Made by a program: the position numbers and the translations under genes. A DNA stretch of 64,000 nucleotides from Isurus oxyrinchus (lineage: Eukaryota): positions 208,196,001 to 208,260,000 of the forward strand of contig JANJGN010000002.1 of assembly GCA_026770705.1 (NCBI GenBank). The letters run 5' to 3'. The notes beneath the pieces were generated by a model that saw only the letters and a list, made by a program, of their open reading frames with translations, had not been told where the DNA came from and did no database searches. This document shows positions 1-64,000 of this stretch, one piece after another; positions within the stretch are counted from its first letter, which is position 1; the number at the start of each line of letters is the position of its first letter.

Positions 1-116
1 GCTCATACCTTGGAGCATGTGACCCTGACCAGAACCTGGGGTGATGAGCAAAACGGCAGGCACAACAACCCCTAAGGTCTGCAAAGACACAACCACAAAT
101 AGACTTTTTTCTACAA

Positions 117-234
117 GTATTGCTGAATGCGCAATCAACATATCAAGATGTCAACAAATCTGTGACATACAAATGGCAGCTTTACAATGCTGTTGCCATC
201 CAGACTACAGCACCAAAATCTTCACTATGTGATG
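117..234 (+). pseudogene. Degenerate cbEGF pseudo-exon D1
   Basis: Translates [34 protein letters not shown]. The homologous acceptor is AA rather than AG (ctacAA|gtatt). It has internal -1/+1 indels, is 8 nt shorter than 126, and has a weak GTCTGA donor. Copies start at 5496, 10875, 16254, 21633, 29893, 35271, 40650. Confidence 0.75.
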
Positions 235-739
235 GTCTGAAATGTTTAAGCGCAAATCTTTATGGGTTGGAGCAAATAATACATGGCTCATTCAGAATTA
301 GAAAATGAATGGATCACAACAATAATCTGCGCCACATCACAATAGGGATCTTCTGGCAGCAGAATGTTGTGTTGGAGTTAAGCCATCATTGCTAAGAGAT
401 TGTTAAAAAGTTCCCCAATTTCTGATAAACGGCCCGAAATTTGCACGTCTGGATTTGCCATTATTTAATATTGTTGAGCCTCAGCCTACAAAGCGGCTGT
501 CACGTTGCAGGTTAGAGGGCACAGAAACATGGTCTCATGGCCAAAAACAACAGTACAATAATTTAGCCATTATATGGCCATCTGTTATATTAGACGGAGA
601 AGTGAAACTAAATATATTGCTCTTCAAATACAAGAAAAACAACATTATAGAGGCTAGAAGGATGTGTTGAAAACACGTGAAACTGTGTGGTGAAATGTGA
701 ATCAACTAAGCAAGGAATAATTTGATATAATTCTTGCAG

Positions 740-865
740 ATATTGATGAATGTGCAACCAGCACATCAACCTGTCATCAAATCTGTACCAATACAATTGG
801 AAGCTTCAATTGCAGTTGCCGTCCTGGGTTTACCACCAATGTTACAAACGCTTCTCTTTGTGATG
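740..865 (+). CDS. cbEGF exon A1 ([42 protein letters not shown])
   Basis: AG 738-739, GT 866-867, 126 nt, phase 1-1. Copies start at 6119, 11498, 16877, 22256, 30515, 35894, 41273. Confidence 0.9.
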
Positions 866-3800
866 GTAGGCACTCTTCACATAAACAGATTCTCTGTTAT
901 TGATTGTTTGTGAATTGCGCTTCGTTGAACATCTATCACAATATTGCAAATCTAATTGGCTTCAAGCAAGACTTGGTGCTCCTTAGTAACTAAATAATCA
1001 GAAGCTAAATAAAATGTTTAGTAGCGCTTTATGAAGGGATATTTTGTATTTGGCAGATATCACTGATGATATTGCTGTTGAATTACACAAATGTTGAATA
1101 TTATACAATTCAAAAGTAATTGTTGCAAACGTGATTTAAGTTGCCAATACCTGCTTTCATGTCAATCAAACTGAGCGAGGAATAATTGGACATTGTTTTG
1201 CAGATATTGATGAATGTGCAACCAACACATCAACCTGTCAACAAATCTGCACCAATACGTTTGGAAGCTTCAATTGCAGTTGCGATCCTGGATTTGGCAC
1301 CAATGTGACAAACACTTCTCTTTGTGATGGTAGGCAATTTTGAAACAATCAGACCCCTGCAATAATAACAAAAATAGCTGGAAAAACTCAGCAGGTCTGA
1401 TAGCGTCTGTGGAGAGGAAGACAGAGTTAATGTTTTGAGTCCGTTTGACACTTCACATTTCTCTTCATTCTGATGAAGACGCATACAGACTCGAAACGTT
1501 AACCCTGACTTCCTCTCCACATATGCTGTGAGACCTGTTGAGTTTATTCAGCTACTTATGTTTATGTTTTTGTTTCAGACTTCCAGCATCTGCAGTATTT
1601 TGCTTTTGATCCCTGCAATTGATGATTTGTGAATTGCGTTTCACTGAACAGCTATCAGAAGATTGCTAATTGTCTTCATGCAAAGTCTTGGTGCGCCCTA
1701 ATAATTAATAATAAGAAGCTGACAATATATGTAGTAATGCTTTGTAATGAGATATACCATATTTGGAAGATGTCTTTTATAAAATTGTTGTTGAATCATG
1801 GATGTGTTAATCAGGATGGAATCCAAAAGGAAGTGTTGCAAACATGTGATTTAAATTGTCAATGTATTTTAATCGAACTGAGTGAGGATTGATTGGACTT
1901 TTTTGTGCAGATATTGATGAATGTGCAATCAACACATCAACCTGTCAACAAATCTGCACGAATACAATTGGAAGCTTCAATTGCAGTTGCCATCCTGGAT
2001 TTAGCACCAATGTGACAAACACTTCTCTTTGTGATGGTAGGTAACCTTCAAACATGCAGATTGTGACAAACTGATGATTGGCATATCACAATATATACAA
2101 CTGCTGCTAATGCTAGATGGCTATCAAAAATCTCTTTGTGTTACTTCACAGAAAAACACTCAGAGGTTGATAACAATAATCTATGTAATTGTACATTGTG
2201 GTTTCCATTGTGTTAAAGTCATAGACTACAATGATATTACATGTATGATTCTGAATTTTGTATCAAAAGCACGTTCTTTGTGCTTCGGGACTTGCCATGA
2301 GCCAGGGATCCTGGTTGTTTTGCAACCATGGTGATAGGAATGTTGTAGTTTGTTGAGGGCAGCAGCAGAATGTCCTAGCCAGAGAATCAATAAATTAGTC
2401 ATTGTGATCTGTCTGAAATTTTTGCTGATTTCTGCATTGTGTGGAATCTTGCACTCTCCTCTTACATTGCTTGCAAGAAATGCCCATTTTCAATTTCATT
2501 GATCATTGAGCAATATGATTTTGGAAATTAATATTTGAGGTGTTTTCCCAGTGCCTACCTCATGTGTGAATGTAGAAACTCAAGTCCTCTTCACAGAATG
2601 GATATTGAGAATCAGCCCTTGCCTATGATATTCTCAATCTTTCGCCATCACCACTGGAATTTGCTGCTTATGCTGATGGCCTTTGCTCATACCTTGGAGC
2701 ATATGACACTGACCTGAGCCTGGGGTGATGAGCAAAAGGGCAGGCACAATGACCCCTGAGGTCTGCAATGACCCTGACACAATCACAAATAGAATTTCTT
2801 CTACAAGTATCAATGAATGTGCAATCAACACATCAGGATGTCAACAAATCTGCACCAATACAATTGGGAGCTTTACATGCTGTTGCCATCTAGGCTTCAG
2901 CACCAAAATTTTCGCTTTGTGATGGTCTGAAATGTTTAAGCACAAATGTTGAAGCAAATAATACGTGGCTCATTCAGAATTAGGAAAAGAATGGATCACG
3001 ACAATAATCTATGCTAAAACACAATAGGGATCTTCTGGAAGCAAAATGTTGTGTTGGAGTAAAGCAGTCATTACTGGGAGATTATTAAAAAGTTCCCCAA
3101 TTTCTGATAAATGGCTTGCACTTTGCACTTCAGGACTTGCCATTATTTAACATTGTTGAGCCGAAGCCTACTAAGTAGCTGTAACATTGTAGGTTAGAGA
3201 GCACAGAAGAAAAGTTTCATGGCCAAAAACAACAAATCAATAATTTAGTCATTATATGGCCAGCTGTTATATTTGACGGAGAATTGAAACTAAATATATT
3301 GCTCTTGAAATACAGAGTAAACCAACATTATAGAGGCTAGAAGGATGTGTTGAAAACATGTGAAATGTATGGTCAAATATGAATCAACTAAGCAAGGAAT
3401 AATTTGATATATTTCTTGCAGATATTGATGAATGTGCAACCAACACATCAACCTGTCATCAAATCTGTACCAATACAATTGGAAGCTTCAGTTGCAGTTG
3501 CCGTCCTGGGTTTACCACCAATGTTACAAATACTTCTCTTTGTGATGGTAGGCGCTCTTCACATGAACAGATTCTCCGTTATTGATTGTCTGTGAATTGC
3601 GCTTCATCAAACATCTGTCACTATATTGCAAATCTAATTGGCTTCAAGTAAGACTTGATACTCCTTAGTAACTAAATAATCAGAAGCTAAATAATATGAT
3701 TAGTTGCGCTTTATGAAGGGCTATTTTATATTTGGATAATGTCACTGATGATATTGCAGTTGAATTTGAGAAATGTTGAATATTATACAATTCAAAAGTA

Positions 3801-6800
3801 AGTGTTGCAAACATGTGATTTAAGTTGTCAATGCCTGCTTTCATGTCAATCAAACTGAGTGAGGAATAATTGGACATTGTTTTGCAGATATTGATGAATG
3901 TGCAACCAACACATCAACCTGTCAACAAATCTGCACCAATACAATTGGAAACTTCAATTGCAGTTGCGATCCTGGCTTTAGCACCAATGTGACAAACACT
4001 TCTCTTTGTGATGGTAGGCAACATTCAAACAATCAGACCACTGAAATAAAAGCAAAAATAGATGCCAAAACTCAGTAGGTCTGACAACATCTGTGGCGAA
4101 GAAAACAGAGTTATCGTTTTGAGTCTGTATGACTCGTCACATTTCTCTTCATTCTGATGCAGACTCATACGGACTCGAAACGTTAACCCTGACTTCCTCT
4201 CAACAAATGACTTGCTGAGTTTTTCCAGCTATTTATGTTTCTGTTTCAGATTTCCAGCATCTGCAGTATTTTGCTTTTGATCCCTGCAATTGATGTTTTG
4301 TGAATTGCGTTTCACGGAACAGCTATCTGTACATTGCTAATTGTCTTCACGCAAAGACTTGGTGCACTGTAATAATTAAGTAAAAAGAAGCTGACAATAT
4401 ATGTAATTATGCTGTGTAATGAGATATGCCATATTTGTAAGATGTCTTTTATAATATTGTTGTAGAATCATGGATGTGTTAATCATGATAGAATCCAAAA
4501 GGAAGTGTTGCAAACATGTGATTTAAATTGTCAATGTATTCGCTTATTTTAATCAAACTGAGTGAGGATTGATTGGACTTTTATGTGCAGATATTGATGA
4601 ATGTGCAATCAACACATCAACCTGTCAACAAATCTGCACAAATACAATTGGAAGCTTCAATTGCAGTTGCCATCCTGGATTTAGTTTGTCACCAATGTGA
4701 CAAACACCTCTCATTGTGATGGAAGGCAATCTTCAAACATGCAGATTGTGACAAACTGATGATTGGCATATCACACTGCATCCAACAGCTCCAAATGCTA
4801 GATGGCTATCAAGAAACTCTTTGTGTTAATTCACAAAAAACATTCAGGTTGATTACAATAATCTGTGTCTGTATGCAATCATTATAGGTTGATTGCACAT
4901 TGTGGTTTCCATTGTGTTAAATTTCTAGACTACAATGATGTTACATGTAGGATTAAAAATTTTAGATCAACTTTGCACTTCCGGACTTGCCATGAGCAAG
5001 GAATCCTGGTTGTTTTGCATCCATCGTGGGAGGAATGTTGTAGTTTGTTGAGGGCAGCAGCAGAATGTCCTAATCAAGAGAATCAATACATTAGTCACTG
5101 TGATCGGTCTGAGATCATTGCTCATTTCTGCATAGCTTGGAGTCTTGCACTTTCCTCTTCCATTGACTGGAAGAAACGCCCAGTTTCAATTTCACTGACC
5201 ATTGAGCAATAATGATTTTGGAAATTAACATTTGAGGTGTTTTCCCATTGCCTACCTCGTGTGAATTTAGAAACGCAAGTCCTCTTCAAGGAATGGAAAT
5301 TGAGAATCAGCCCTTGCCTATGGTGTTCTAGTTCTTTCGCCATCACCACTGGAATTTGCTGCTTATGCTGATGGCCTTGGCTCATACCTTGGAGCATGTG
5401 ACCCTGACCAGAACCTGGGGTGATGAGCAAAACGGCAGGCACAACAACCCCTAAGGTCTGCAAAGACACAACCACAAATAGACTTTTTTCTACAAGTATT
5501 GCTGAATGCGCAATCAACATATCAAGATGTCAACAAATCTGTGACATACAAATGGCAGCTTTACAATGCTGTTGCCATCCAGACTACAGCACCAAAATCT
5601 TCACTATGTGATGGTCTGAAATGTTTAAGCGCAAATCTTTATGGGTTGGAGCAAATAATACATGGCTCATTCAGAATTAGAAAATGAATGGATCACAACA
5701 ATAATCTGCGCCACATCACAATAGGGATCTTCTGGCAGCAGAATGTTGTGTTGGAGTTAAGCCATCATTGCTAAGAGATTGTTAAAAAGTTCCCCAATTT
5801 CTGATAAACGGTCCGAAATTTGCACGTCTGGATTTGCCATTATTTAATATTGTTGAGCCTCAGCCTACAAAGCGGCTGTCACGTTGCAGGTTAGAGGGCA
5901 CAGAAACATGGTCTCATGGCCAAAAACAACAGTACAATAATTTAGCCATTATATGGCCATCTGTTATATTAGACGGAGAAGTGAAACTAAATATATTGCT
6001 CTTCAAATACAAGAAAAACAACATTATAGAGGCTAGAAGGATGTGTTGAAAACACGTGAAACTGTGTGGTGAAATGTGAATCAACTAAGCAAGGAATAAT
6101 TTGATATAATTCTTGCAGATATTGATGAATGTGCAACCAGCACATCAACCTGTCATCAAATCTGTACCAATACAATTGGAAGCTTCAATTGCAGTTGCCG
6201 TCCTGGGTTTACCACCAATGTTACAAACGCTTCTCTTTGTGATGGTAGGCACTCTTCACATAAACAGATTCTCTGTTATTGATTGTTTGTGAATTGCGCT
6301 TCGTTGAACATCTATCACAATATTGCAAATCTAATTGGCTTCAAGCAAGACTTGGTGCTCCTTAGTAACTAAATAATCAGAAGCTAAATAAAATGTTTAG
6401 TAGCGCTTTATGAAGGGATATTTTGTATTTGGCAGATATCACTGATGATATTGCTGTTGAATTACACAAATGTTGAATATTATACAATTCAAAAGTAAGT
6501 GTTGCAAACGTGATTTAAGTTGCCAATACCTGCTTTCATGTCAATCAAACTGAGCGAGGAATAATTGGACATTGTTTTGCAGATATTGATGAATGTGCAA
6601 CCAACACATCAACCTGTCAACAAATCTGCACCAATACGTTTGGAAGCTTCAATTGCAGTTGCGATCCTGGATTTGGCACCAATGTGACAAACACTTCTCT
6701 TTGTGATGGTAGGCAATTTTGAAACAATCAGACCCCTGCAATAATAACAAAAATAGCTGGAAAAACTCAGCAGGTCTGATAGCGTCTGTGGAGAGGAAGA

Positions 6801-9800
6801 CAGAGTTAATGTTTTGAGTCCGTTTGACACTTCACATTTCTCTTCATTCTGATGAAGACGCATACAGACTCGAAACGTTAACCCTGACTTCCTCTCCACA
6901 TATGCTGTGAGACCTGTTGAGTTTATTCAGCTACTTATGTTTATGTTTTTGTTTCAGACTTCCAGCATCTGCAGTATTTTGCTTTTGATCCCTGCAATTG
7001 ATGATTTGTGAATTGCGTTTCACTGAACAGCTATCAGAAGATTGCTAATTGTCTTCATGCAAAGTCTTGGTGCGCCCTAATAATTAATAATAAGAAGCTG
7101 ACAATATATGTAGTAATGCTTTGTAATGAGATATACCATATTTGGAAGATGTCTTTTATAAAATTGTTGTTGAATCATGGATGTGTTAATCAGGATGGAA
7201 TCCAAAAGGAAGTGTTGCAAACATGTGATTTAAATTGTCAATGTATTTTAATCGAACTGAGTGAGGATTGATTGGACTTTTTTGTGCAGATATTGATGAA
7301 TGTGCAATCAACACATCAACCTGTCAACAAATCTGCACGAATACAATTGGAAGCTTCAATTGCAGTTGCCATCCTGGATTTAGCACCAATGTGACAAACA
7401 CTTCTCTTTGTGATGGTAGGTAACCTTCAAACATGCAGATTGTGACAAACTGATGATTGGCATATCACAATATATACAACTGCTGCTAATGCTAGATGGC
7501 TATCAAAAATCTCTTTGTGTTACTTCACAGAAAAACACTCAGAGGTTGATAACAATAATCTATGTAATTGTACATTGTGGTTTCCATTGTGTTAAAGTCA
7601 TAGACTACAATGATATTACATGTATGATTCTGAATTTTGTATCAAAAGCACGTTCTTTGTGCTTCGGGACTTGCCATGAGCCAGGGATCCTGGTTGTTTT
7701 GCAACCATGGTGATAGGAATGTTGTAGTTTGTTGAGGGCAGCAGCAGAATGTCCTAGCCAGAGAATCAATAAATTAGTCATTGTGATCTGTCTGAAATTT
7801 TTGCTGATTTCTGCATTGTGTGGAATCTTGCACTCTCCTCTTACATTGCTTGCAAGAAATGCCCATTTTCAATTTCATTGATCATTGAGCAATATGATTT
7901 TGGAAATTAATATTTGAGGTGTTTTCCCAGTGCCTACCTCATGTGTGAATGTAGAAACTCAAGTCCTCTTCACAGAATGGATATTGAGAATCAGCCCTTG
8001 CCTATGATATTCTCAATCTTTCGCCATCACCACTGGAATTTGCTGCTTATGCTGATGGCCTTTGCTCATACCTTGGAGCATATGACACTGACCTGAGCCT
8101 GGGGTGATGAGCAAAAGGGCAGGCACAATGACCCCTGAGGTCTGCAATGACCCTGACACAATCACAAATAGAATTTCTTCTACAAGTATCAATGAATGTG
8201 CAATCAACACATCAGGATGTCAACAAATCTGCACCAATACAATTGGGAGCTTTACATGCTGTTGCCATCTAGGCTTCAGCACCAAAATTTTCACTTTGTG
8301 ATGGTCTGAAATGTTTAAGCACAAATGTTGAAGCAAATAATACGTGGCTCATTCAGAATTAGGAAAAGAATGGATCACGACAATAATCTATGCTAAAACA
8401 CAATAGGGATCTTCTGGAAGCAAAATGTTGTGTTGGAGTAAAGCAGTCATTACTGGGAGATTATTAAAAAGTTCCCCAATTTCTGATAAATGGCTTGCAC
8501 TTTGCACTTCAGGACTTGCCATTATTTAACATTGTTGAGCCGAAGCCTACTAAGTAGCTGTAACATTGTAGGTTAGAGAGCACAGAAGAAAAGTTTCATG
8601 GCCAAAAACAACAAATCAATAATTTAGTCATTATATGGCCAGCTGTTATATTTGACGGAGAATTGAAACTAAATATATTGCTCTTGAAATACAGAGTAAA
8701 CCAACATTATAGAGGCTAGAAGGATGTGTTGAAAACATGTGAAATGTATGGTCAAATATGAATCAACTAAGCAAGGAATAATTTGATATATTTCTTGCAG
8801 ATATTGATGAATGTGCAACCAACACATCAACCTGTCATCAAATCTGTACCAATACAATTGGAAGCTTCAGTTGCAGTTGCCGTCCTGGGTTTACCACCAA
8901 TGTTACAAATACTTCTCTTTGTGATGGTAGGCGCTCTTCACATGAACAGATTCTCCGTTATTGATTGTCTGTGAATTGCGCTTCATCAAACATCTGTCAC
9001 TATATTGCAAATCTAATTGGCTTCAAGTAAGACTTGATACTCCTTAGTAACTAAATAATCAGAAGCTAAATAATATGATTAGTTGCGCTTTATGAAGGGC
9101 TATTTTATATTTGGATAATGTCACTGATGATATTGCAGTTGAATTTGAGAAATGTTGAATATTATACAATTCAAAAGTAAGTGTTGCAAACATGTGATTT
9201 AAGTTGTCAATGCCTGCTTTCATGTCAATCAAACTGAGTGAGGAATAATTGGACATTGTTTTGCAGATATTGATGAATGTGCAACCAACACATCAACCTG
9301 TCAACAAATCTGCACCAATACAATTGGAAACTTCAATTGCAGTTGCGATCCTGGCTTTAGCACCAATGTGACAAACACTTCTCTTTGTGATGGTAGGCAA
9401 CATTCAAACAATCAGACCACTGAAATAAAAGCAAAAATAGATGCCAAAACTCAGTAGGTCTGACAACATCTGTGGCGAAGAAAACAGAGTTATCGTTTTG
9501 AGTCTGTATGACTCGTCACATTTCTCTTCATTCTGATGCAGACTCATACGGACTCGAAACGTTAACCCTGACTTCCTCTCAACAAATGACTTGCTGAGTT
9601 TTTCCAGCTATTTATGTTTCTGTTTCAGATTTCCAGCATCTGCAGTATTTTGCTTTTGATCCCTGCAATTGATGTTTTGTGAATTGCGTTTCACGGAACA
9701 GCTATCTGTACATTGCTAATTGTCTTCACGCAAAGACTTGGTGCACTGTAATAATTAAGTAAAAAGAAGCTGACAATATATGTAATTATGCTGTGTAATG

Positions 9801-12800
9801 AGATATGCCATATTTGTAAGATGTCTTTTATAATATTGTTGTAGAATCATGGATGTGTTAATCATGATAGAATCCAAAAGGAAGTGTTGCAAACATGTGA
9901 TTTAAATTGTCAATGTATTCGCTTATTTTAATCAAACTGAGTGAGGATTGATTGGACTTTTATGTGCAGATATTGATGAATGTGCAATCAACACATCAAC
10001 CTGTCAACAAATCTGCACAAATACAATTGGAAGCTTCAATTGCAGTTGCCATCCTGGATTTAGTTTGTCACCAATGTGACAAACACCTCTCATTGTGATG
10101 GAAGGCAATCTTCAAACATGCAGATTGTGACAAACTGATGATTGGCATATCACACTGCATCCAACAGCTCCAAATGCTAGATGGCTATCAAGAAACTCTT
10201 TGTGTTAATTCACAAAAAACATTCAGGTTGATTACAATAATCTGTGTCTGTATGCAATCATTATAGGTTGATTGCACATTGTGGTTTCCATTGTGTTAAA
10301 TTTCTAGACTACAATGATGTTACATGTAGGATTAAAAATTTTAGATCAACTTTGCACTTCCGGACTTGCCATGAGCAAGGAATCCTGGTTGTTTTGCATC
10401 CATCGTGGGAGGAATGTTGTAGTTTGTTGAGGGCAGCAGCAGAATGTCCTAATCAAGAGAATCAATACATTAGTCACTGTGATCGGTCTGAGATCATTGC
10501 TCATTTCTGCATAGCTTGGAGTCTTGCACTTTCCTCTTCCATTGACTGGAAGAAACGCCCAGTTTCAATTTCACTGACCATTGAGCAATAATGATTTTGG
10601 AAATTAACATTTGAGGTGTTTTCCCATTGCCTACCTCGTGTGAATTTAGAAACGCAAGTCCTCTTCAAGGAATGGAAATTGAGAATCAGCCCTTGCCTAT
10701 GGTGTTCTAGTTCTTTCGCCATCACCACTGGAATTTGCTGCTTATGCTGATGGCCTTGGCTCATACCTTGGAGCATGTGACCCTGACCAGAACCTGGGGT
10801 GATGAGCAAAACGGCAGGCACAACAACCCCTAAGGTCTGCAAAGACACAACCACAAATAGACTTTTTTCTACAAGTATTGCTGAATGCGCAATCAACATA
10901 TCAAGATGTCAACAAATCTGTGACATACAAATGGCAGCTTTACAATGCTGTTGCCATCCAGACTACAGCACCAAAATCTTCACTATGTGATGGTCTGAAA
11001 TGTTTAAGCGCAAATCTTTATGGGTTGGAGCAAATAATACATGGCTCATTCAGAATTAGAAAATGAATGGATCACAACAATAATCTGCGCCACATCACAA
11101 TAGGGATCTTCTGGCAGCAGAATGTTGTGTTGGAGTTAAGCCATCATTGCTAAGAGATTGTTAAAAAGTTCCCCAATTTCTGATAAACGGCCCGAAATTT
11201 GCACGTCTGGATTTGCCATTATTTAATATTGTTGAGCCTCAGCCTACAAAGCGGCTGTCACGTTGCAGGTTAGAGGGCACAGAAACATGGTCTCATGGCC
11301 AAAAACAACAGTACAATAATTTAGCCATTATATGGCCATCTGTTATATTAGACGGAGAAGTGAAACTAAATATATTGCTCTTCAAATACAAGAAAAACAA
11401 CATTATAGAGGCTAGAAGGATGTGTTGAAAACACGTGAAACTGTGTGGTGAAATGTGAATCAACTAAGCAAGGAATAATTTGATATAATTCTTGCAGATA
11501 TTGATGAATGTGCAACCAGCACATCAACCTGTCATCAAATCTGTACCAATACAATTGGAAGCTTCAATTGCAGTTGCCGTCCTGGGTTTACCACCAATGT
11601 TACAAACGCTTCTCTTTGTGATGGTAGGCACTCTTCACATAAACAGATTCTCTGTTATTGATTGTTTGTGAATTGCGCTTCGTTGAACATCTATCACAAT
11701 ATTGCAAATCTAATTGGCTTCAAGCAAGACTTGGTGCTCCTTAGTAACTAAATAATCAGAAGCTAAATAAAATGTTTAGTAGCGCTTTATGAAGGGATAT
11801 TTTGTATTTGGCAGATATCACTGATGATATTGCTGTTGAATTACACAAATGTTGAATATTATACAATTCAAAAGTAAGTGTTGCAAACGTGATTTAAGTT
11901 GCCAATACCTGCTTTCATGTCAATCAAACTGAGCGAGGAATAATTGGACATTGTTTTGCAGATATTGATGAATGTGCAACCAACACATCAACCTGTCAAC
12001 AAATCTGCACCAATACGTTTGGAAGCTTCAATTGCAGTTGCGATCCTGGATTTGGCACCAATGTGACAAACACTTCTCTTTGTGATGGTAGGCAATTTTG
12101 AAACAATCAGACCCCTGCAATAATAACAAAAATAGCTGGAAAAACTCAGCAGGTCTGGTAGCGTCTGTGGAGAGGAAGACAGAGTTAATGTTTTGAGTCC
12201 GTTTGACACTTCACATTTCTCTTCATTCTGATGAAGACGCATACAGACTCGAAACGTTAACCCTGACTTCCTCTCCACATATGCTGTGAGACCTGTTGAG
12301 TTTATTCAGCTACTTATGTTTATGTTTTTGTTTCAGACTTCCAGCATCTGCAGTATTTTGCTTTTGATCCCTGCAATTGATGATTTGTGAATTGCGTTTC
12401 ACTGAACAGCTATCAGAAGATTGCTAATTGTCTTCATGCAAAGTCTTGGTGCGCCCTAATAATTAATAATAAGAAGCTGACAATATATGTAGTAATGCTT
12501 TGTAATGAGATATACCATATTTGGAAGATGTCTTTTATAAAATTGTTGTTGAATCATGGATGTGTTAATCAGGATGGAATCCAAAAGGAAGTGTTGCAAA
12601 CATGTGATTTAAATTGTCAATGTATTTTAATCGAACTGAGTGAGGATTGATTGGACTTTTTTGTGCAGATATTGATGAATGTGCAATCAACACATCAACC
12701 TGTCAACAAATCTGCACGAATACAATTGGAAGCTTCAATTGCAGTTGCCATCCTGGATTTAGCACCAATGTGACAAACACTTCTCTTTGTGATGGTAGGT

Positions 12801-54800: not shown

Positions 54801-57800
54801 ATGTTACAAACACTTCTCTTTGTGATGGTAGGCACTCTTCACAAAACAGATTCTCTGTTATTGATTGTTTGTGAATTGCGCTTTATGCAACATCTATCAA
54901 TATATTGCAAATTGGCTTCATGCAAGACTTGGTGTTCCTTAGTAACTAAATTATCACAATCTAAATAATATGTTTAGTAGCGCTTTATGAAGGGATATTT
55001 TGTATTGGAAGGTGTCACTGATGATATTTTGCAGTTGAATTTGAGAAATGTTGAATATTATACAATTCAAAAGTAATTGTTGCAAAAATGTGATTTAAGT
55101 TGCCAATGCCTGCTTTCATGTCAATCAAACTGAGTGAGGAATAATTGGACATTGTTTTGCAGATATTGATGAATGTGCAACCAACACATCAACCTGTCAA
55201 CAAATCTGCACCAATACAATTGGAAGCTTCAATTGCAGTTGCGATCCTGGATTTGGCACCAATGTGACAAACACTTCTCTTTGTAATGGTAGGCAACCTT
55301 CAAACAATCAGACCCCTGCAATTAAAGCAAAAATAGATGCAAAAACTCAGCAGGTCTGACAACATCTGTGGGGAAGAAGACAGAGTTAATGATTCGAGTC
55401 CGTATGACTGGTCACATTTCTCTTCATTCTGATGAAGACTCATACGGACTCGAAACGTTAACTCTAACTGCCTCTCCACATATGCTGTCTGACGTGTTGC
55501 GTTTATTCAGCTATTTATGTTTTTGTTTCAGACTTCCAGCATCTGCAGTATTTTGCATTTGATCCCTGCAATTGATGATTTGTGAACTGCTTTTCACTGA
55601 ACAGCTATCAGAAGATTGCTAATTGTCTTCACGCAAAGACTTGGTACACCGTAATAATTAATAATAAGAAGCTGACAATATATGTAGTAATGCTTTGTAA
55701 TGAGATATGCCATATTTGGAAGGTGTCTTTTATAAAATTGTTGTTGAATCATGGATGTGTTAATCACGATGAAATCCACAATGAAGTGTTGCAAACATGT
55801 GATTTTAATTGTCAATGTATTTTAATCAAACTGAGTGAGGATTGATTAGACTTTTTTGTGCAGATATTGATGAATGTGCAATCAACACATCAACCTGTCA
55901 ACAAATCTGCACCAATACAATTGGAAGCTTCAATTGCAGTTGCCATCCTGGATTTAGCACCAATGTGACAAACACTTCTCATTGTGATGGTAGGCAACCT
56001 TCAAACATGCAGATTCTGACAAACTGATGATTGGCGTATCACGCTGCATCCAGCTGCTCCTAATGCTAGATGGCCATCAAGAAGCTCTTTGTGTTACTTG
56101 ACAAAGAAACACTAAGAGGTTGATGACAATAATCTATGTTTTTATGCAATCATTATATGTTGATTGCACATTGAGGTTTCTATTATGTTAAATGGATTGA
56201 ATACAATGATATTACATGTAGGATTAGGATTTGTGGATCAACTTTGCACTTCTGGACTTGCCATGAGGAAGGGATCCTCGTTGTTTTGCATCCATGATGG
56301 TAGGAATGTTGTAGTTTGTTGAGGGCAGCAGCAGAATGTCCTGACCAAGAGAATCAATACATTAGTCCTTGTGTTCTGTCTGAGAGCATGCTCATTTCTG
56401 CACAGCTTGGTGTCTTACGCTTTCCTCTTCCATTGACTGGAAGAAATGCCCATTTTCAATTTCATTGCTCATTGAGCAACATGACTTTGGAAATTAATAT
56501 TTGAGGTGTTTTCCCATTGCCTACCTCGTTTGAATTTAGAAACTCAAGTCCTCTTCATGGAATGGATATTGAGAATCAGCCCTTGCCAATGGTGTTCTAG
56601 TTCTTTCGCCATCACCACTGGAATTTGCTGCTTATGCTGATGGCCTTGGCTCATACCTTGGAGCATGTGACCCTGACCAGAACCTGGGGTGATGAGCAAA
56701 TGGGCAGGCACAACCACCCCTGAGGTCTGCAATGACACAACCACAAATAGACTTTTTTCTACCAGTATCGCTGAATGTGCAATCAGCATATCAAGATGTC
56801 AACAAATCTGTGCCATACAAATGGGAGCTTTACAATGCTGTTGCCATCCAGACTTCAGCACCAAAATCTTCGCTTTGTGATGGTCTGAAATGTTTAAGTG
56901 CAAATCTTTATGGGTTGAAGCAAATAATACATAGCTCATTCATAATTAGAAAATTAATGGATCACAACAATAAACTGTGCCACATCACAATAGGGATCTT
57001 CTGGCAGCAGAATGTTGAGTTGGAGTTAAGCCATCATTGCTAAGAGATTGTTAAAAAGTTCCCCAATATCTGATAAACAGCCCGAAATTTGCACTTCTGG
57101 ATTTGCCATTATTTAACGTTGTTGAGCCTAACCCTACTAAGTGGCTGTCACGTTGCAGGTTAGACAGCACAGAAACATGGTCTCATGGCCAAGAACAACA
57201 GTATAATAATTTAGCCATTATATGGCCAGCTGTTATATTTGTCGGAGAAGTGAAACTAAATATATTGCTCTTCAAATACAAGAAAAACAACATTAGAGAG
57301 GCTAGAAGGATGTGTTGAAAACACATAAAACTGTGTGGTGAAATGTGAATCAACTAAGCAATGAATAATTTGATATAATTCTTGCAGATATTGATGAATG
57401 TGCAACCAGCACATCAAACTGTCATCAAATCTGTACCAATACAATTGGAAGCTTCAATTGCATTTGCCGTCCTGGGTTTACCACCAATGTTACAAACACT
57501 TCTCTTTGTGATGGTAGGCACTCTTCACAAAACAGATTCTCTGTTATTGATTGTTTGTGAATTGCGCTTTATGCAACATCTATCAATATATTGCAAATTG
57601 GCTTCATGCAAGACTTGGTGTTCCTTAGTAACTAAATTATCACAAGCTAAATAATATGTTTAGTAGCGCTTTATGAAGGGATATTTTGTATTGGAAGGTG
57701 TCACTGATGATATTTTGCAGTTGAATTTGAGAAATGTTGAATATTATACAATTCAAAAGTAATTGTTGCAAAAATGTGATTTAAGTTGCCAATGCCTGCT

Positions 57801-60800
57801 TTCATGTCAATCAAACTGAGTGAGGAATAATTGGACATTGTTTTGCAGATATTGATGAATGTGCAACCAACACATCAACCTGTCAACAAATCTGCACCAA
57901 TACAATTGGAAGCTTCAATTGCAGTTGCGATCCTGGATTTGGCACCAATGTGACAAACACTTCTCTTTGTAATGGTAGGCAACCTTCAAACAATCAGACC
58001 CCTGCAATTAAAGCAAAAATAGATGCAAAAACTCAGCAGGTCTGACAACATCTGTGGGGAAGAAGACAGAGTTAATGATTCGAGTCCGTATGACTGGTCA
58101 CATTTCTCTTCATTCTGATGAAGACTCATACGGACTCGAAACGTTAACTCTAACTGCCTCTCCACATATGCTGTCTGACGTGTTGCGTTTATTCAGCTAT
58201 TTATGTTTTTGTTTCAGACTTCCAGCATCTGCAGTATTTTGCATTTGATCCCTGCAATTGATGATTTGTGAACTGCTTTTCACTGAACAGCTATCAGAAG
58301 ATTGCTAATTGTCTTCACGCAAAGACTTGGTACACCGTAATAATTAATAATAAGAAGCTGACAATATATGTAGTAATGCTTTGTAATGAGATATGCCATA
58401 TTTGGAAGGTGTCTTTTATAAAATTGTTGTTGAATCATGGATGTGTTAATCACGATGAAATCCACAATGAAGTGTTGCAAACATGTGATTTTAATTGTCA
58501 ATGTATTTTAATCAAACTGAGTGAGGATTGATTAGACTTTTTTGTGCAGATATTGATGAATGTGCAATCAACACATCAACCTGTCAACAAATCTGCACCA
58601 ATACAATTGGAAGCTTCAGTTGCAGTTGCCATCCTGGATTTAGCACCAATGTGACAAACACTTCTCATTGTGATGGTAGGCAACCTTCAAACATGCAGAT
58701 TCTGACAAACTGATGATTGGCGTATCACGCTGCATCCAGCTGCTCCTAATGCTAGATGGCCATCAAGAAGCTCTTTGTGTTACTTGACAAAGAAACACTA
58801 AGAGGTTGATGACAATAATCTATGTTTTTATGCAATCATTATATGTTGATTGCACATTGAGGTTTCTATTATGTTAAATGGATTGAATACAATGATATTA
58901 CATGTAGGATTAGGATTTGTGGATCAACTTTGCACTTCTGGACTTGCCATGAGGAAGGGATCCTCGTTGTTTTGCATCCATGATGGTTGGAATGTTGTAG
59001 TTTGTTGAAGGCAGCAGCAGAATGTCCTGACCAAGAGAATCAATACATTAGTCCTTGTGATCTGTCTGAGAGCATTGCTCATTTCTGCACAGCTTGGTGT
59101 CTTATGCTTTCCTCTTCCATTGACTGGAAGAAATGCCCATTTTCAATTTCATTGCTCATTGAGCAATATGACTTTGGAAATTAATATTTGAGGTGTTTTC
59201 CCATTGCCTACCTCGTGTGAATTTAGAAACTCAAGTCCTCTTCATAGACTGGATATTGAGAATCAGCCCTTGCCTATGGTGTTCTAGTTGTTTCGCCATC
59301 ACCACTGGAATTTGCTGCTTATGCTGATGGCCTTGGCTCATACCTTGGAGCATGTGACCCTGACCAGAACCTGGGGTGATGAGCAAAAGGGCAGGCACAA
59401 CCACCCCTGAGGTCTGCAATGACACAACCACTAATAGACTTTTTTCTACAAGTATTGCTGAATGTGCAGTCAGCATATCAAGATGTCAACAAATCTGTGC
59501 CATACAAATGGCAGCTTTACAATGCTGTTGCCATCCAGACTTCAGCACCAAAATCTTCGCTTTGTGATGGTCTGAAATGTTTAAGTGCAAATCTTTATGG
59601 GTTGAAGCAAATAATACATGGCTCATTCAGAATTAGAAAATGAATGGATCATAACAATAATCTGTGCCACATCACAATAGGGATCTTCTGGCAGCAGAAT
59701 GTTGTGTTGGAGTTAAGCCATCATTGCTAAGAGATTGTTAAAAAGTTCCCCAATTTCTGATAAACGGCCCGAAATTTGCACTTCTGGATTTGCCATTATT
59801 TAACATTGTTGAGCCTAAGCCTACTAAGTGGCTGTCACATTGCAGGTTAGAGAGCACAGAAACATGGTCTCATGGCCAAAAACAACAGTACAATAATTTA
59901 GCCATTATATGGCCAGCTGTTATATTTGACGGAGAAGGGAAACTAAACATATTACTCTTCAAATACAAGAAAAACAACATTATAGAGGCTTGAAGGATGT
60001 GTTGAAAACACGTGAAACTGTGTGGTGAAATGTGAATCAACTAAGCAAGTAATAATTTGATATAATTCTTGCAGATATTGTTGAATGTTCAACCAACACA
60101 TCAAACTGTCATCAAATCTGTACCAATACAATTGGAAGCTTCAATTGCAGTTGCCGTCCTGGGTTTACCACCAATGTTACAAACGCTTCTCTTTGTGATG
60201 ATAGAAGCTCTTCACATAAACAGATTCTCTGTTATTGATTGTTTGTGAATTGCACTTTATCCAACATCTATCACTATATTGCAAATCTCATTGGCTTCAT
60301 GCATGACTTGGTGTTCCTTAGTAACTAAATTATCACAATCTAAATAATATGTTTAGTAGCACTTTATGAAGGGCTATTTTGTATTGGAAGCTGTCACTGA
60401 TGATATTGCAGTTGAATTTGAGAAATGTTGAATATTATACAATTCAAAAGTAAATGTTGCAAATATGTGATTTAAGTTGCCAATGCCTGCTTTCATGTCA
60501 ATCAAACTGAGTGAGGAATAATTGGACATTGTTTTGCAGATATTGATGAATGTGCAACCAACACATCAACCTGTCAACAAATCTGCACCAATACAATTGG
60601 AAGCTTCAATTGCAGTTGCGATCCTGGATTTGGCACCAATGTGACAAACACTTCTCTTTGTAATGGTAGGCAACCTTCAAACAATCAGACCCCTGCAATT
60701 AAAGCAAAAATAGATGCAAAAACTCAGCAGGTCTGACAACATCTGTGGGGAAGAAAACAGAGTTAATGATTCGAGTCCGTATGACTGGTCACATTTCTCT

Positions 60801-63800
60801 TCATTCTGATGAAGACTCATACGGACTCGAAACGTTATCTCTAACTGCCTCTCCACATATGCTGTCAGACGTGTTGTGTTTATTCAGCTATTTATGTTTT
60901 TGTTTCAGACTTCCAGCATCTGCAGTATTTTGCTTTTGATCCCTGCAATTGATGATTTGTGAACTGCTTTTCACTGAACAGCTATCAGAAGATTGCTAAT
61001 TGTCTTCACGCAAAGTCTTGGTGCACCGTAATAATTAATAATAAGAAGCTGACAATATATGTAGTAATGATTTGTAATGAGATATGCCATATTTGGAAGA
61101 TGTCTTTTATAAAATTGTTGTTGAATCATGGATGTGTTAATCAGGATGGAATCCAAAAGGAAGTGTTGCAAACATGTGATTTAAATTGTCAATGTATTTT
61201 AATCAAACTGAGTGAGGATTGATTAGACTTTTTTGTGCAGATATTGATGAATGTGCAATCAACACATCAACCTGTCAACAAATCTGCACCAATACAATTG
61301 GAAGCTTCAATTGCAGTTGCCATCCTGGATTTAGCACCAATGTGACAAACACTTCTCATTGTGATGGTAGGCAACCTTCAGACATGCAGATTCTGACAAA
61401 CTGATGATTGACGTATCACGCTGCACCAACTGCTCCTAATGCTAGGTGGCCATCAAGAAGCCCTTTGTGTTACTTGACAAAGAAACACTAAGAGGTTGAT
61501 GACAATAATCTATGTTTTTATGCAATCATTATATGTTGATTGCACATAATGGTTTCCAATATGTTAAATGCATAGACTACAATGATATTACATGTAGGAT
61601 TAGGATTTGTGGATCAACTTTGCACTTCTGGACTTGCCATGAGACAGGGATCCTCGTTGTTTTGCATCCATGATGGTAGGAATGTTGTAGTTTGTTGAAG
61701 GCAGCAGCAGAATGTCCTGACCAAGAGAATCAATACATTAGTCCTTGTGATCTGTCTGAGAGCATTGCTCATTTCTGCACAGCTTGGTGTCTAACGCTTT
61801 CCTCTTCCATTGACTGGAAGAATTGCCCATTTTCAATTTCATTGCTCATTGAGCAATATGACTTTGGAAATTAATATTTGAGGTGTTTTCCCATTGCCTA
61901 CCTCGTGTGAGTTTAGAAACTCAAAGTCCTCTTCATAGAATGGATATTGAGAATCAGCCCTTCCCTGTGGTGTTCTAGTTCTTTTGCCATCACCACTGGA
62001 ATTTGCTGCTTATGCTGATGGCCTTGGCTCATCCCTTGGAGCATGTGACCCTGACCAGAACCTGGGGTGATGAGCAAAAGGGCAGGCACAACCACCCCTG
62101 AGGTCTGCAATGACACAACCACAAATAGATTTATTTCTACAAGTATCGCTGAATGTGCAATCAGCATATCAAGATGGCAACAAATCTGTGCCATACAAAT
62201 GGGAGCTTTAAAATGCTGTTGCCATCCAGACTTCAGCACCAAAATCTTCTCTTTGTGAAGGTCTGAAATGTTTAAGCGCAAATCTTTATGGGTTGAAGCA
62301 AATAATACATGGCTCATTCAGAATTAGAAAATGAATGGATCACAACAATAATCTGTGCCACATCACAATAGGGATCTTCTGGCAGCAGAATGTTGTGCTG
62401 GAGTTAAGCCATCATTGCGAAGAGATTGTTAAAAAGTTCCCCAATTTCTGATAAACAGCCCGAAATTTGCACTTCTGGATTTGCCATTATTTAACATTGT
62501 TGAGCCTAAGCCTACTAAGTGGCTGTCACGTTGCAGGTTAGAGAGCACAGAAACATGGTCTCATGGCCAAAAACAACAGTACAATAATTTAGCCATTATA
62601 TGGCCAGCTGTTATATTTGACGGAGAAGGGAAACTAAACATATTGCTCTTCGAATACAAGAAAAACAACATTATAGAGGCTAGCAGGATGTTTTGAAAAG
62701 ACGTGAAACTGTGTGGTGAAATGTGAATCAACTAAGCAAGGAATAATTTGATATAATTCTTGCAGATATTGATGAATGTGCAGCCAACACACCAACCTGT
62801 CATCAAATCTGTACCAACACAATTGGAAGCTTCAATTGCAGTTGCCGTCCTGGGTTTACCACCAATGTTACAAACACTTCTCTTTGTGTTGGTAGGCACA
62901 CTTCACATAAACAGATTCTCTGTTATTGATTGTTTGTGAATTGCACTTTAGCCAACATCTATCACTGTATTGCAAATCTCATTGGCTTCATGCAAGACTA
63001 AATTATCACAATCTAAATAATATGTATGGTAGCACTTTATGAAGGAATATTTTGTATTGGAAGCTGTCACTGATGATATTGCAGTTGAATTTGAGAAATG
63101 TTGAATATTATACAATTCAAAAGTAAATGCTGCAAATATGTGATTTAAGTTGCCAATGCCTGCTTTCATGTCAATCAAACTGAGTGAGGAATAATTGGAC
63201 ATTGTTTCGCAGATATTGATGAATGTGCAAACAACACATCAACCTGTCAACAAATCTGCACCAATACAATTGGAAGCTTCAATTGCAGTTGCGATCCTGG
63301 ATTTGGCACCAATGTGACAAACACTTCTCTTTGTAATGGTAGGCAACCTTCAAACAATCAGACCCCAGCAATTAAAGCAAAAATAGATGCAAAAACTCAG
63401 CAGGTCTGACAACATCTGTGAGGAAGAAGACAGAGTTAATGATTCGAGTCCGTATGACTGGTCACATTTCTCTTCATTCTGATGAAGACTCATACGGACT
63501 CGAAACGTTAACTCTAACTGCCTCTCCACATATGCTGTCTGACGTGTTGCGTTTATTCAGCTATTTATGTTTTTGTTTCAGACTTCCAGCATCTGCAGTA
63601 TTTTGCTTTTGATCCCTGCAATTGATGATTTGTGAACTGCTTTTCACTGAACAGCTATCAGAAGATTGCTAATTGTCTTCACGCAAAGTCTTGGTGCACC
63701 GTAATAATTAATAATAAGGAGCTGACAATATATGTAGTAATGCTTTGTAATGAGATATGCCATATTTGGAAGGTGTCTTTTATAAAATTGTTGTTGAATC

Positions 63801-64000
63801 ATGGATGTGTTAATCACGATGAAATCCACAATGAAGTGTTGCAAACATGTGATTTTAATTGTCAATGTATTTTAATCAAACTGAGTGAGGATTGATTAGA
63901 CTTTTTTGTGCAGATATTGATGAATGTGCAATCAACACATCAACCTGTCAACAAATCTGCACCAATACAATTATCTGCACCAATACAATTGGAAGCTTCA
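740..64000 (+). CDS. Internal part of a giant spliced gene encoding a tandem calcium-binding EGF-domain protein (~60 intact cbEGF exons in window; both ends outside window)
   Basis: Repeated 126-nt segments bounded by pyrimidine-rich ...TGCAG acceptors and GTAGG donors, all phase 1-1 and stop-free when joined. Each encodes D-I-D-E-C...C-x-N-x4-F-x-C-x-C...C (six Cys, cbEGF consensus). No other exon type seen. Confidence 0.9.
1204..1329 (+). CDS. cbEGF exon B1 ([42 protein letters not shown])
   Basis: AG 1202-1203, GT 1330-1331, 126 nt. Copies start at 6583, 11962, 17341, 22720, 30979, 36358, 41737. Confidence 0.9.
1364..1610 (+). mobile_element. Fold-back non-autonomous insertion, Penelope-like pseudo-LTR remnant with degenerate hammerhead core (B1-C1 intron)
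   Basis: Flanked by direct repeat CCCTGCAAT (1355-1363 / 1611-1619) and absent from the paralogous site of the A-B intron. ~95-nt inverted arms; CTGATGA..GACTCGAAACGTT motif at 1470-1500. Copies start at 6743, 12122, 17501, 22880, 31139, 36518, 41897. Family assignment is from memory of PLE architecture, not from a search. Confidence 0.7.
1911..2036 (+). CDS. cbEGF exon C1 ([42 protein letters not shown])
   Basis: AG 1909-1910, GTAGGT donor at 2037, 126 nt. Copies start at 7290, 12669, 18048, 23427, 26311, 31686, 37065, 42444. Confidence 0.9.
2807..2924 (+). pseudogene. Degenerate cbEGF pseudo-exon D2
   Basis: Translates [38 protein letters not shown]. Homologous acceptor AA; 118 nt, frameshifted before the sixth Cys. 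Copies start at 8186, 13565, 18944, 24323, 27205, 32582, 37961, 43340. Confidence 0.8.
3422..3547 (+). CDS. cbEGF exon A2 ([42 protein letters not shown])
   Basis: AG 3420-3421, GT 3548-3549, 126 nt. Copies start at 8801, 14180, 19559, 24938, 27821, 33197, 38576, 43955. Confidence 0.9.
3888..4013 (+). CDS. cbEGF exon B2 ([42 protein letters not shown])
   Basis: AG 3886-3887, GT 4014-4015, 126 nt. Copies start at 9267, 14646, 20025, 25404, 28287 (1-nt deletion), 33663, 39042, 44421. Confidence 0.9.
4048..4281 (+). mobile_element. Same fold-back insertion in the B2-C2 intron
   Basis: Homologous to 1364-1610. Left TSD decayed (CCACTGAAAT); core mutated to CTGATGC. Copies start at 9427, 14806, 20185, 25564, 28446, 33823, 39202, 44581. 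Confidence 0.7.
4591..4721 (+). pseudogene. Defective cbEGF exon C2 (intact acceptor, 5-nt insertion, donor GT>GA)
   Basis: The TTTAG[TTTGT]CACC insertion gives ...[10 protein letters not shown] (TGA 4698-4700); the donor reads G|GAAGGC. Copies start at 9970, 15349, 20728, 26107 (cut by gap), 28989, 34366, 39745, 45124. Confidence 0.8.
6119..9392 (+). CDS. HOR copy 2: five intact cbEGF exons
   Basis: 6119-6244, 6583-6708, 7290-7415, 8801-8926, 9267-9392; AG/GT intact. Confidence 0.85.
11498..14771 (+). CDS. HOR copy 3: five intact cbEGF exons
   Basis: 11498-11623, 11962-12087, 12669-12794, 14180-14305, 14646-14771. Confidence 0.85.
16877..20150 (+). CDS. HOR copy 4: five intact cbEGF exons
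   Basis: 16877-17002, 17341-17466, 18048-18173, 19559-19684, 20025-20150. Confidence 0.85.
22256..25529 (+). CDS. HOR copy 5: five intact cbEGF exons
   Basis: 22256-22381, 22720-22845, 23427-23552, 24938-25063, 25404-25529. Confidence 0.85.
26131..26230. other. Assembly gap (100 N)
   Basis: Run of exactly 100 N, a typical placeholder for a gap of unknown size. Confidence 0.99.
26311..28411 (+). CDS. Partial HOR copy after gap: C1 and A2 intact, B2 with 1-nt deletion
   Basis: 26311-26436, 27821-27946, 28287-28411 (125 nt; TTCATTGC instead of TTCAATTGC at ~28355, probably a consensus error). Confidence 0.7.
30515..33788 (+). CDS. HOR copy 7: five intact cbEGF exons
   Basis: 30515-30640, 30979-31104, 31686-31811, 33197-33322, 33663-33788. 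Confidence 0.85.
35894..39167 (+). CDS. HOR copy 8: five intact cbEGF exons
   Basis: 35894-36019, 36358-36483, 37065-37190, 38576-38701, 39042-39167. Confidence 0.85.
41273..44546 (+). CDS. HOR copy 9: five intact cbEGF exons
   Basis: 41273-41398, 41737-41862, 42444-42569, 43955-44080, 44421-44546. Confidence 0.85.
46029..46146 (+). pseudogene. Distal D pseudo-exon (representative)
   Basis: D1-like lesions. Other copies at 48718-48835, 51403-51520, 54080-54197, 56765-56882, 59452-59569, 62143-62260. Confidence 0.75.
46652..47941 (+). CDS. Distal unit 1: exons A, B, C intact
   Basis: 46652-46777, 47117-47242, 47816-47941; all 126 nt with AG/GT. Confidence 0.85.
49341..49466 (+). pseudogene. 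Distal unit 2 exon A, donor destroyed
   Basis: Coding sequence intact but followed by ACAGGC instead of GTAGGC. Confidence 0.75.
49800..50626 (+). CDS. Distal unit 2: exons B, C intact
   Basis: 49800-49925, 50501-50626. Confidence 0.85.
52026..52151 (+). pseudogene. Distal unit 3 exon A, donor destroyed and Ca-ligand lost
   Basis: Begins [12 protein letters not shown]; followed by ATAGAA instead of GTAGGC. Confidence 0.8.
52491..53317 (+). CDS. Distal unit 3: exons B, C intact
   Basis: 52491-52616, 53192-53317. Confidence 0.85.
52652..52891 (+). mobile_element. Same fold-back insertion, distal-unit version (representative)
   Basis: TSD CCCTGCAATT (52642-52651 / 52892-52901); perfect 15-bp arm pair TTCGAGTCCGTATGA / TCATACGGACTCGAA. 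Other distal copies at about 47277-47516, 49961-50200, 55324-55563, 58010-58249, 60701-60940, 63374-63613. Confidence 0.7.
54702..55989 (+). CDS. Distal unit 4: exons A, B, C intact
   Basis: 54702-54827, 55163-55288, 55864-55989. Confidence 0.85.
57388..58675 (+). CDS. Distal unit 5: exons A, B, C intact
   Basis: 57388-57513, 57849-57974, 58550-58675. Confidence 0.85.
60075..60200 (+). pseudogene. Distal unit 6 exon A, donor destroyed (duplicate of 52026-52151)
   Basis: DIVECS start and ATAGAA after the exon. Confidence 0.8.
60540..61366 (+). CDS. Distal unit 6: exons B, C intact
   Basis: 60540-60665, 61241-61366. Confidence 0.85.
62766..64000 (+). CDS. Distal unit 7: exons A, B intact; C partial with 18-nt duplication
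   Basis: 62766-62891, 63213-63338, 63914 to window end. Confidence 0.8.

Follow-up and report, generated by a model that had tools for sequence, protein, structure and literature searches.

How far can a rod of cbEGF domains extend, and what could homogenise the exons that encode it but not the introns between them? A locus of the shark Isurus oxyrinchus offers a natural test of both questions. The window analysed here, a 64-kb stretch of its DNA, had been described in a first-pass annotation as a coding macrosatellite of uninterrupted, near-identical cbEGF exons that would build a pure cbEGF rod. The array is a real feature and its exon count is confirmed, and the earlier interpretation is partly right. 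In our preferred reading, to which we assign a probability of about 0.6, the window covers the central part of a single functional elasmobranch gene whose product is a mucin-like extracellular glycoprotein, with the array as a long glycosylated spacer.

Exon anatomy and repeat hierarchy

The array was mapped by a six-frame motif scan and by blastn with the first exon as a query; its units span the whole window, all on the + strand. The 59 intact 126-nt phase 1-1 cbEGF exons first counted were all recovered: each is open and bounded by AG and GT, and they run from 740–865 to 63213–63338 on the + strand, 25 before and 34 after a 100-N gap. All 59 matched the cbEGF consensus, while the same test gave no match on the minus strand or in any of 20 shuffles, and the three intact exons tested against Pfam EGF_CA (PF07645) scored 42.9–47.8 bits against a curated cut-off of 27. 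The exons are indeed near-identical, the 59 comprising only 14 different DNA sequences and 13 different protein sequences, and all 14 distinct exons have the cysteine spacing 6-3-8-1-13. As reported earlier, the array shows no terminus at the gap or at either end of the window. The absence of other exon types also held: a search of stop-free stretches of at least 55 aa in one 5.4-kb unit and of other AG-126-GT frames, which very small exons could escape, revealed no signal-peptide, PTS or other domain exon. No TB, CUB, vWA, EMI, laminin-EGF or fibulin C-terminal domain was found in the 64-kb window.

Table 1. Positions of representative exons, repeat zones and other features in the window.
Feature	Position	Strand	Remarks
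Type A cbEGF exon, example	740..865	+	21 intact A copies
Type B cbEGF exon, example	1204..1329	+	23 intact B copies
Type C cbEGF exon, example	1911..2036	+	15 intact C copies, including 47816 (unclassed by script)
Type D pseudo-exon, example	2808..2924	+	24 copies; decayed cbEGF of 117 nt; AG shifted by one base, 8-nt deletion
Dead C2 exon, example	4591..4721	+	5-nt insertion and GT>GA donor
A exon with dead donor	49341..49466	+	likewise 52026, 60075
B exon with 1-nt deletion	28287..28411	+	splice sites intact
Last C exon, cut by window end	63914..64000	+	in-frame 18-nt tandem duplication
Young higher-order repeat, left contig	1..26130	+	about 4.9 copies of 5,379-nt unit; 25 intact exons; perfectly periodic 12159–26130
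100-N assembly gap	26131..26230		inside homogeneous repeat
5,379-nt repeat, right contig	26231..46000	+	17 intact exons; older type from about 44.8–45.6 kb
Older zone, 2.69-kb A-B-C-D units	46001..64000	+	17 intact exons
Hairpin element in B-C introns, example	63390..63620		fold z = −5.95 for 63390–63535

The basic unit, of 2.69 kb, comprises four exon types, A-B-C-D, and their introns. Two versions of it, differing by 10%, alternate from base 1 to about 45.6 kb and together form a 5,379-nt higher-order repeat, A1-B1-C1-D + A2-B2-dead C2-D, with five intact cbEGF exons in each copy. Left of the gap, comparison at a lag of 5,379 gave 8 mismatches in 20,751 positions (about 99.96% identity); the locus is thus a coding macrosatellite in the sense of a kilobase tandem unit of exon plus intron in near-identical copies. 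The older units are 1.5–4.0% apart from one another and 7–10% from the young ones. The unit starting at 43955 changes from the young to the older type part-way (44808–46100), marking the edge of the recent amplification.

Over the 100 nt preceding A, B and C, the similarity between types remains at 68–82%, compared with 90–95% in the exons, and the three types therefore appear to descend from one exon-intron monomer. Sequence distances suggest the order monomer, four-mer, eight-mer. One cbEGF exon and its intron would have been duplicated to give the four types A–D; the 2.69-kb block would then have been amplified and D have decayed; two blocks 10% apart would have fused into the 5,379-nt unit, in which C2 lost its donor; and this unit would have been amplified very recently, most likely through unequal crossing-over.

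The array is not uninterrupted, as had been claimed. Of the 97 exon-like units, 38 are broken or partial (24 D, 9 C2, 3 A, 1 B and 1 C) and are interspersed among the intact ones, so the run is continuous only if these copies are skipped. Eight of the C2 copies are whole, with both the insertion and the donor change, and the ninth is cut by the gap; the dead A copies at 52026 and 60075 additionally carry D3V at a calcium ligand. Nine single-base indels are confined to 26267–29928, the first 3.7 kb after the gap, with none in the next copy compared. Such a cluster is typical of a poorly polished contig end. The deletion in the B exon at 28287 is one of the nine and is therefore probably a contig-end error, which would make this the 60th intact exon. 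The duplication in the last C exon (63955–63990), the only repeat reported by Tandem Repeats Finder at a period limit of 500, would add a seventh cysteine if spliced.

The copy number itself could be an assembly product in an otherwise real gene, if an identical repeat has been collapsed, or assembled twice where the contigs meet. Both contigs end in the homogeneous zone at the gap; on the left, the final 13,972 nt are strictly periodic and include 13 intact exons, and the right contig opens with the nine indels. We regard this as a real possibility, though short of an even chance, and it is compatible with the preferred reading. What limits it is that 17 intact exons lie in units 1.5–4% apart, that the first copies of the left contig carry private variants, and that a collapse would raise, not lower, the true number. 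Even with full overlap over the 13 periodic exons, no fewer than 46 intact exons are supported by the window, which sets no upper limit.

Nearest proteins and gene family

With one exon as the query, 92 candidates yielded 37 proteins, of which the closest full-length matches came from the catshark Scyliorhinus torazame (90%, 86% and 86%) and the skate Rhinoraja longicauda (76% and 75%). The catshark models are scyTo_0015748 (P0006) and isoforms X2 and X5 (P0026 and P0024), the skate models are LOC144599354 (P0005) and LOC144599410 (P0008), and no function is given for any of them. Domain identity to the window is 85–90% for the catshark and 68–76% for the skate models. All seven pattern-found catshark and skate domains share the spacing 6-3-8-1-13, which lies outside the three commonest spacings listed for each of 12 other proteins examined. 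In a domain tree, window, catshark and skate group at 93/84, with one Dictyostelium domain inside the group and too few columns in the alignment. Given these relatives, the view that the gene cannot be identified was too pessimistic.

Read by eye, P0024 and P0026 consist of a hydrophobic N-terminus, PTS repeats, one cbEGF and a tail of about 41 aa, and the skate models mix cbEGFs with PTS blocks. With a signal peptide, PTS blocks and a tail in the relatives, the description of the product as a “pure” cbEGF protein becomes doubtful. Neither signal peptide nor PTS repeats were seen in the window itself, and its link to the mucin-like models consists of domain and intron similarity: of the 11 translated positions in the intron-derived start of P0006, 10 agree with the window intron that lies upstream of B. 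On these similarities, the gene most likely belongs to an uncharacterised elasmobranch mucin-like family. It would be orthologous to the catshark and skate models and would be laid out as a signal peptide, PTS repeats, the cbEGF array and a short C-terminal part. The earlier proposal, that satellite-like amplification of exon-intron units expanded an extracellular gene specific to one lineage, is supported.

The catshark and skate relatives are short predictions with one to three such domains (one or two in the catshark). No long elasmobranch array protein is among the matches listed from the exon and profile searches; the profile search, over proteins of 521–2,000 aa, was dominated by fibrillin-like sequences, and its best 120 of 1,424 entries include no elasmobranch array. 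The locus appears to mark an unannotated, apparently elasmobranch-specific extracellular gene of which the database models miss most of the length. In a literature search that was thin on subscription journals, we found no paper on the gene itself, and its length, uniformity and nested pseudo-exons were likewise undescribed there.

If the short shark models are truncated, the array could instead be the stalk of an adhesion-GPCR-type membrane receptor (ADGRE/ADGRF-like) or of a SEA-plus-transmembrane mucin. ADGRE5 is the best solved-structure sequence match for the catshark pair (E = 1.2e-25), the ADGRF-type protein P0041 has 21 cbEGF stretches followed by SEA, Ig, GAIN/GPS and 7TM, with domains 83–85% alike, and single-exon cbEGFs, block duplication and skipping are described for ADGRE1 (PMC6174849). 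However, ADGR domains mostly have five residues between Cys2 and Cys3, against three in 14 of 14 distinct window exons, and their mean identity to the window is only 36–45%. No GPS, 7TM or SEA match was obtained in the five elasmobranch models or in the catshark tail, where the model may be incomplete, and Pfam detected in all five models, which are short, only EGF families plus three sub-threshold matches. A receptor stalk is quite unlikely on this evidence. The catshark tail matched no family and, used as a query, retrieved nothing but its own gene, with 2 hits out of 6 candidates; our impression is that it could be the start of a SEA-like domain.

A divergent fibrillin, LTBP, SCUBE, MEGF6, matrilin or fibulin gene would have the cbEGF fold in common with the window and would agree with the many fibrillin-like hits at 40–65%. 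The short Cys2-Cys3 spacing, which had suggested a SCUBE/MEGF6/matrilin/fibulin link in the first-pass annotation, also occurs in some of these families. Such an origin is nevertheless very improbable: there is no TB, CUB, vWA or other exon in 64 kb, and the nearest proteins are the much closer elasmobranch models, which carry PTS mucin repeats and, short as they are, none of the TB, CUB, vWA, EMI, laminin-EGF or fibulin C-terminal domains.

Conservation of the exons

Across nine distinct units, variable sites number 20 of 378 in exons and 420 of 2,127 in introns (Fisher p = 5e-14), the live exons being about four times more conserved than the introns. The six older units alone gave 10/378 versus 160/2,127 (p = 2e-4), and none of 165 equally long intron windows reaches the conservation of any exon. 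Amino-acid variants in the intact exons avoid the 11 cysteine and calcium-consensus residues (0 of 20, p = 0.0012), and D copies carry six changes at these structural residues. Wherever an A, B or C exon retains its two splice sites, it is free of stops and frameshifts, the sole exception lying in the error-rich contig end. The exon deficit of indels is small (1 versus 4.4 expected).

Type D varies at 26 of 117 sites, which is the intron rate (p = 0.55). It retains AG and GT, with a donor score of 3/7 versus 4/7 in live donors by a crude count, and 12 of 23 listed copies are open while 11 would add a stop if included; the long frame therefore depends on D being ignored. The possibility that D is a working frame-shifted exon was rejected on its intron-rate change and these stops. 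In the copy at 118–234, and in other copies, the moved acceptor and the 8-nt deletion preserve 117 nt and the phase, and the old exon is read in another frame. The locus shows both the birth and the death of exons inside a live satellite.

The dN/dS ratio among the 14 distinct exons is 0.59–0.78, which is not significantly below 1 (9 synonymous and 20 non-synonymous variants, p = 0.12). Synonymous sites vary at 5 of 78 positions versus a rate of 0.197 in introns (p = 0.002), about three times less, and synonymous and non-synonymous sites are not distinguishable (p = 0.36). The low synonymous variation in A, B and C is unexplained by protein selection alone. Given this conservation of synonymous sites, conversion between exons could account for some of the exon/intron contrast without protein selection; the conservation points to exon-limited homogenisation or a splicing constraint besides protein selection. 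Differences specific to A, B and C persist across units, which suggests that conversion between types is limited.

A recently inactivated or mostly untranslated satellite, in which similar exons convert each other and a transcript uses few of them, would fit the 38 broken or partial units among 97, the lack of a significant difference between synonymous and non-synonymous rates, and the one or two cbEGFs of the catshark models; symmetric exons are also described as readily skipped (PMC6174849). We consider it unlikely, given that spliceable A, B and C exons are free of stops and frameshifts bar the contig-end one, that variants avoid structural residues, that the persistent type-specific differences limit conversion, and that skate domains at 68–76% identity keep the spacing unchanged. 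On balance, the pattern argues for a live or recently live gene, with selection acting on the fold rather than on surface residues.

The predicted protein and its counterparts

All 59 predicted domains have the six cysteines and the calcium consensus D/N-x-D/N-E/Q...D/N...Y/F, as worded in PMC4826273, and all 59 have a packing aromatic four residues after Cys5. That report ties both features to rod-like cbEGF pairs, and the domains thus bear the sequence marks of rigid pairs, in keeping with the stiff rods first envisaged. An AlphaFold model of the catshark pair, built on a 29-row alignment, reached pLDDT 84–96 over most of the EGFs; it superposes on solved EGF pairs of LRP2 and LDLR at 2–3 Å rmsd and on fibrillin cbEGF12-13 at 4.1 Å, a comparison that is silent on calcium and rigidity. 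P0006 folded without an alignment reached a pLDDT of only 40.

Together the 59 domains amount to 2,478 residues and 261 kDa before glycans, with 30% Ser+Thr and 214 N-glycan sequons, three or four per domain. A chain of more than 2,400 aa is predicted only if all exons are included and the assembly copy number is right; because every exon is symmetric, skipping would give shorter in-frame forms. In the gene proposed here, the broken copies would be skipped and the A, B and C exons spliced into a cbEGF chain, whose domains may stiffen on calcium binding and carry N-glycans at their three or four sites. The array would then form a long glycosylated spacer or bottle-brush, its length set by the number of repeats and perhaps by exon skipping. 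Such a product would most likely serve a secreted or surface coat as a stiff, glycosylated spacer.

A bolder version, which we hold to be speculative and rather improbable, would be a shark “folded mucin”: one chain of at least 60 near-identical cbEGFs with more than 200 N-glycans, forming a calcium-stiffened brush of roughly 150–175 nm or more, the estimate being based on the length of a single cbEGF domain. Its length would vary between individuals in five-domain steps. Its exons, synonymous sites included, would be kept uniform by a process that halts at exon borders and ignores the unspliced D, possibly conversion templated by the spliced transcript.

Among 91 of 129 proteins with at least 10 cbEGFs, those named or inspected in a set limited to 2,255 aa, the longest unbroken cbEGF run is 24 and only P0041 is as uniform as the window; longer proteins with 54 and 63 matched stretches are also listed, outside this set. 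P0041, an ADGRF-type adhesion GPCR that by its architecture probably comes from a teleost, has 20–21 near-identical cbEGFs of 83–85% mutual identity and represents an independent expansion of the same kind. Fibrillins resemble the window in their long cbEGF runs with the packing aromatic and in the five-residue Cys6-Cys1 link, and human fibrillin-1 has 43 cbEGF domains; their domains are divergent, however (40% mutual identity in P0189), and are accompanied by TB domains, which are absent from the window. The elasmobranch models share its cysteine spacing, tandem cbEGFs and, in the catshark, intron similarity, but have one to three domains rather than dozens, with the signal peptide, PTS blocks and tail lying outside the window.

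The novelty of a coding satellite had been overstated, as coding exon-intron macrosatellites are already published. The kringle IV-2 coding VNTR of human LPA is a 5.6-kb exon-intron unit present in 1–40 copies that sets the length of a secreted glycoprotein, with demonstrated length polymorphism (PMC11462820); each of its units encodes one kringle from two exons, whereas 5.38 kb of the window hold five cbEGF and three dead exons in a nested arrangement. The Schistosoma SmPoMuc mucins (PMC2576457) and the Argiope spidroin MaSp2.2 (PMC9779670) likewise consist of tandem exon-plus-intron repeats, described as being under concerted evolution, with an assembly failure in the repeat in the former and alternating intron types in the latter. 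Their units are unfolded low-complexity peptides, unlike the cbEGF exons here, and spider-silk introns are reported to be more homogenised than exons (PMC2576457), whereas in the window the exons are the more uniform part. ADGRE1, in which skipping gives shorter in-frame forms (PMC6174849), and P0041 share with the window one cbEGF per symmetric exon and block duplication, but have another cysteine spacing, arrays of 7–21 rather than 46–60 or more domains, and the GAIN/7TM part not seen here. The predicted giant tenascin TN50 of the sea lamprey, from a known family, contains 131 FN3 domains, many of them identical, rather than cbEGFs (PMC11401434). Domain repeats have been described as evolving in concert rarely but repeatedly (PMC5100051). 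The general mechanism and repeat-expanded coding genes are thus already known elsewhere, and what is unusual in the shark array is its length and uniformity.

The introns carry elements of their own. Decayed core words resembling a hammerhead occur with the B-C intron hairpin at 23 places (others near 1380–1610 and 4060–4280), and stem II is broken. Rfam gave no match at the gathering score in the window, and 63340–63660 gave three weak unrelated matches and no hammerhead family. Since the isolated hammerhead-like stretches folded no better than shuffles (z = −1.07, −0.53 and +0.96), we rejected an active ribozyme. The C-D introns (e.g., 2400–2725) contain two short words that we take to resemble a decayed LINE reverse transcriptase; neither of the two had Pfam support. 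The hairpin element, which presumably resembles repeats of Penelope-like elements, is likely a transposon remnant that was copied with the unit. Penelope-like elements are described as carrying minimal hammerheads (PMC6155905).
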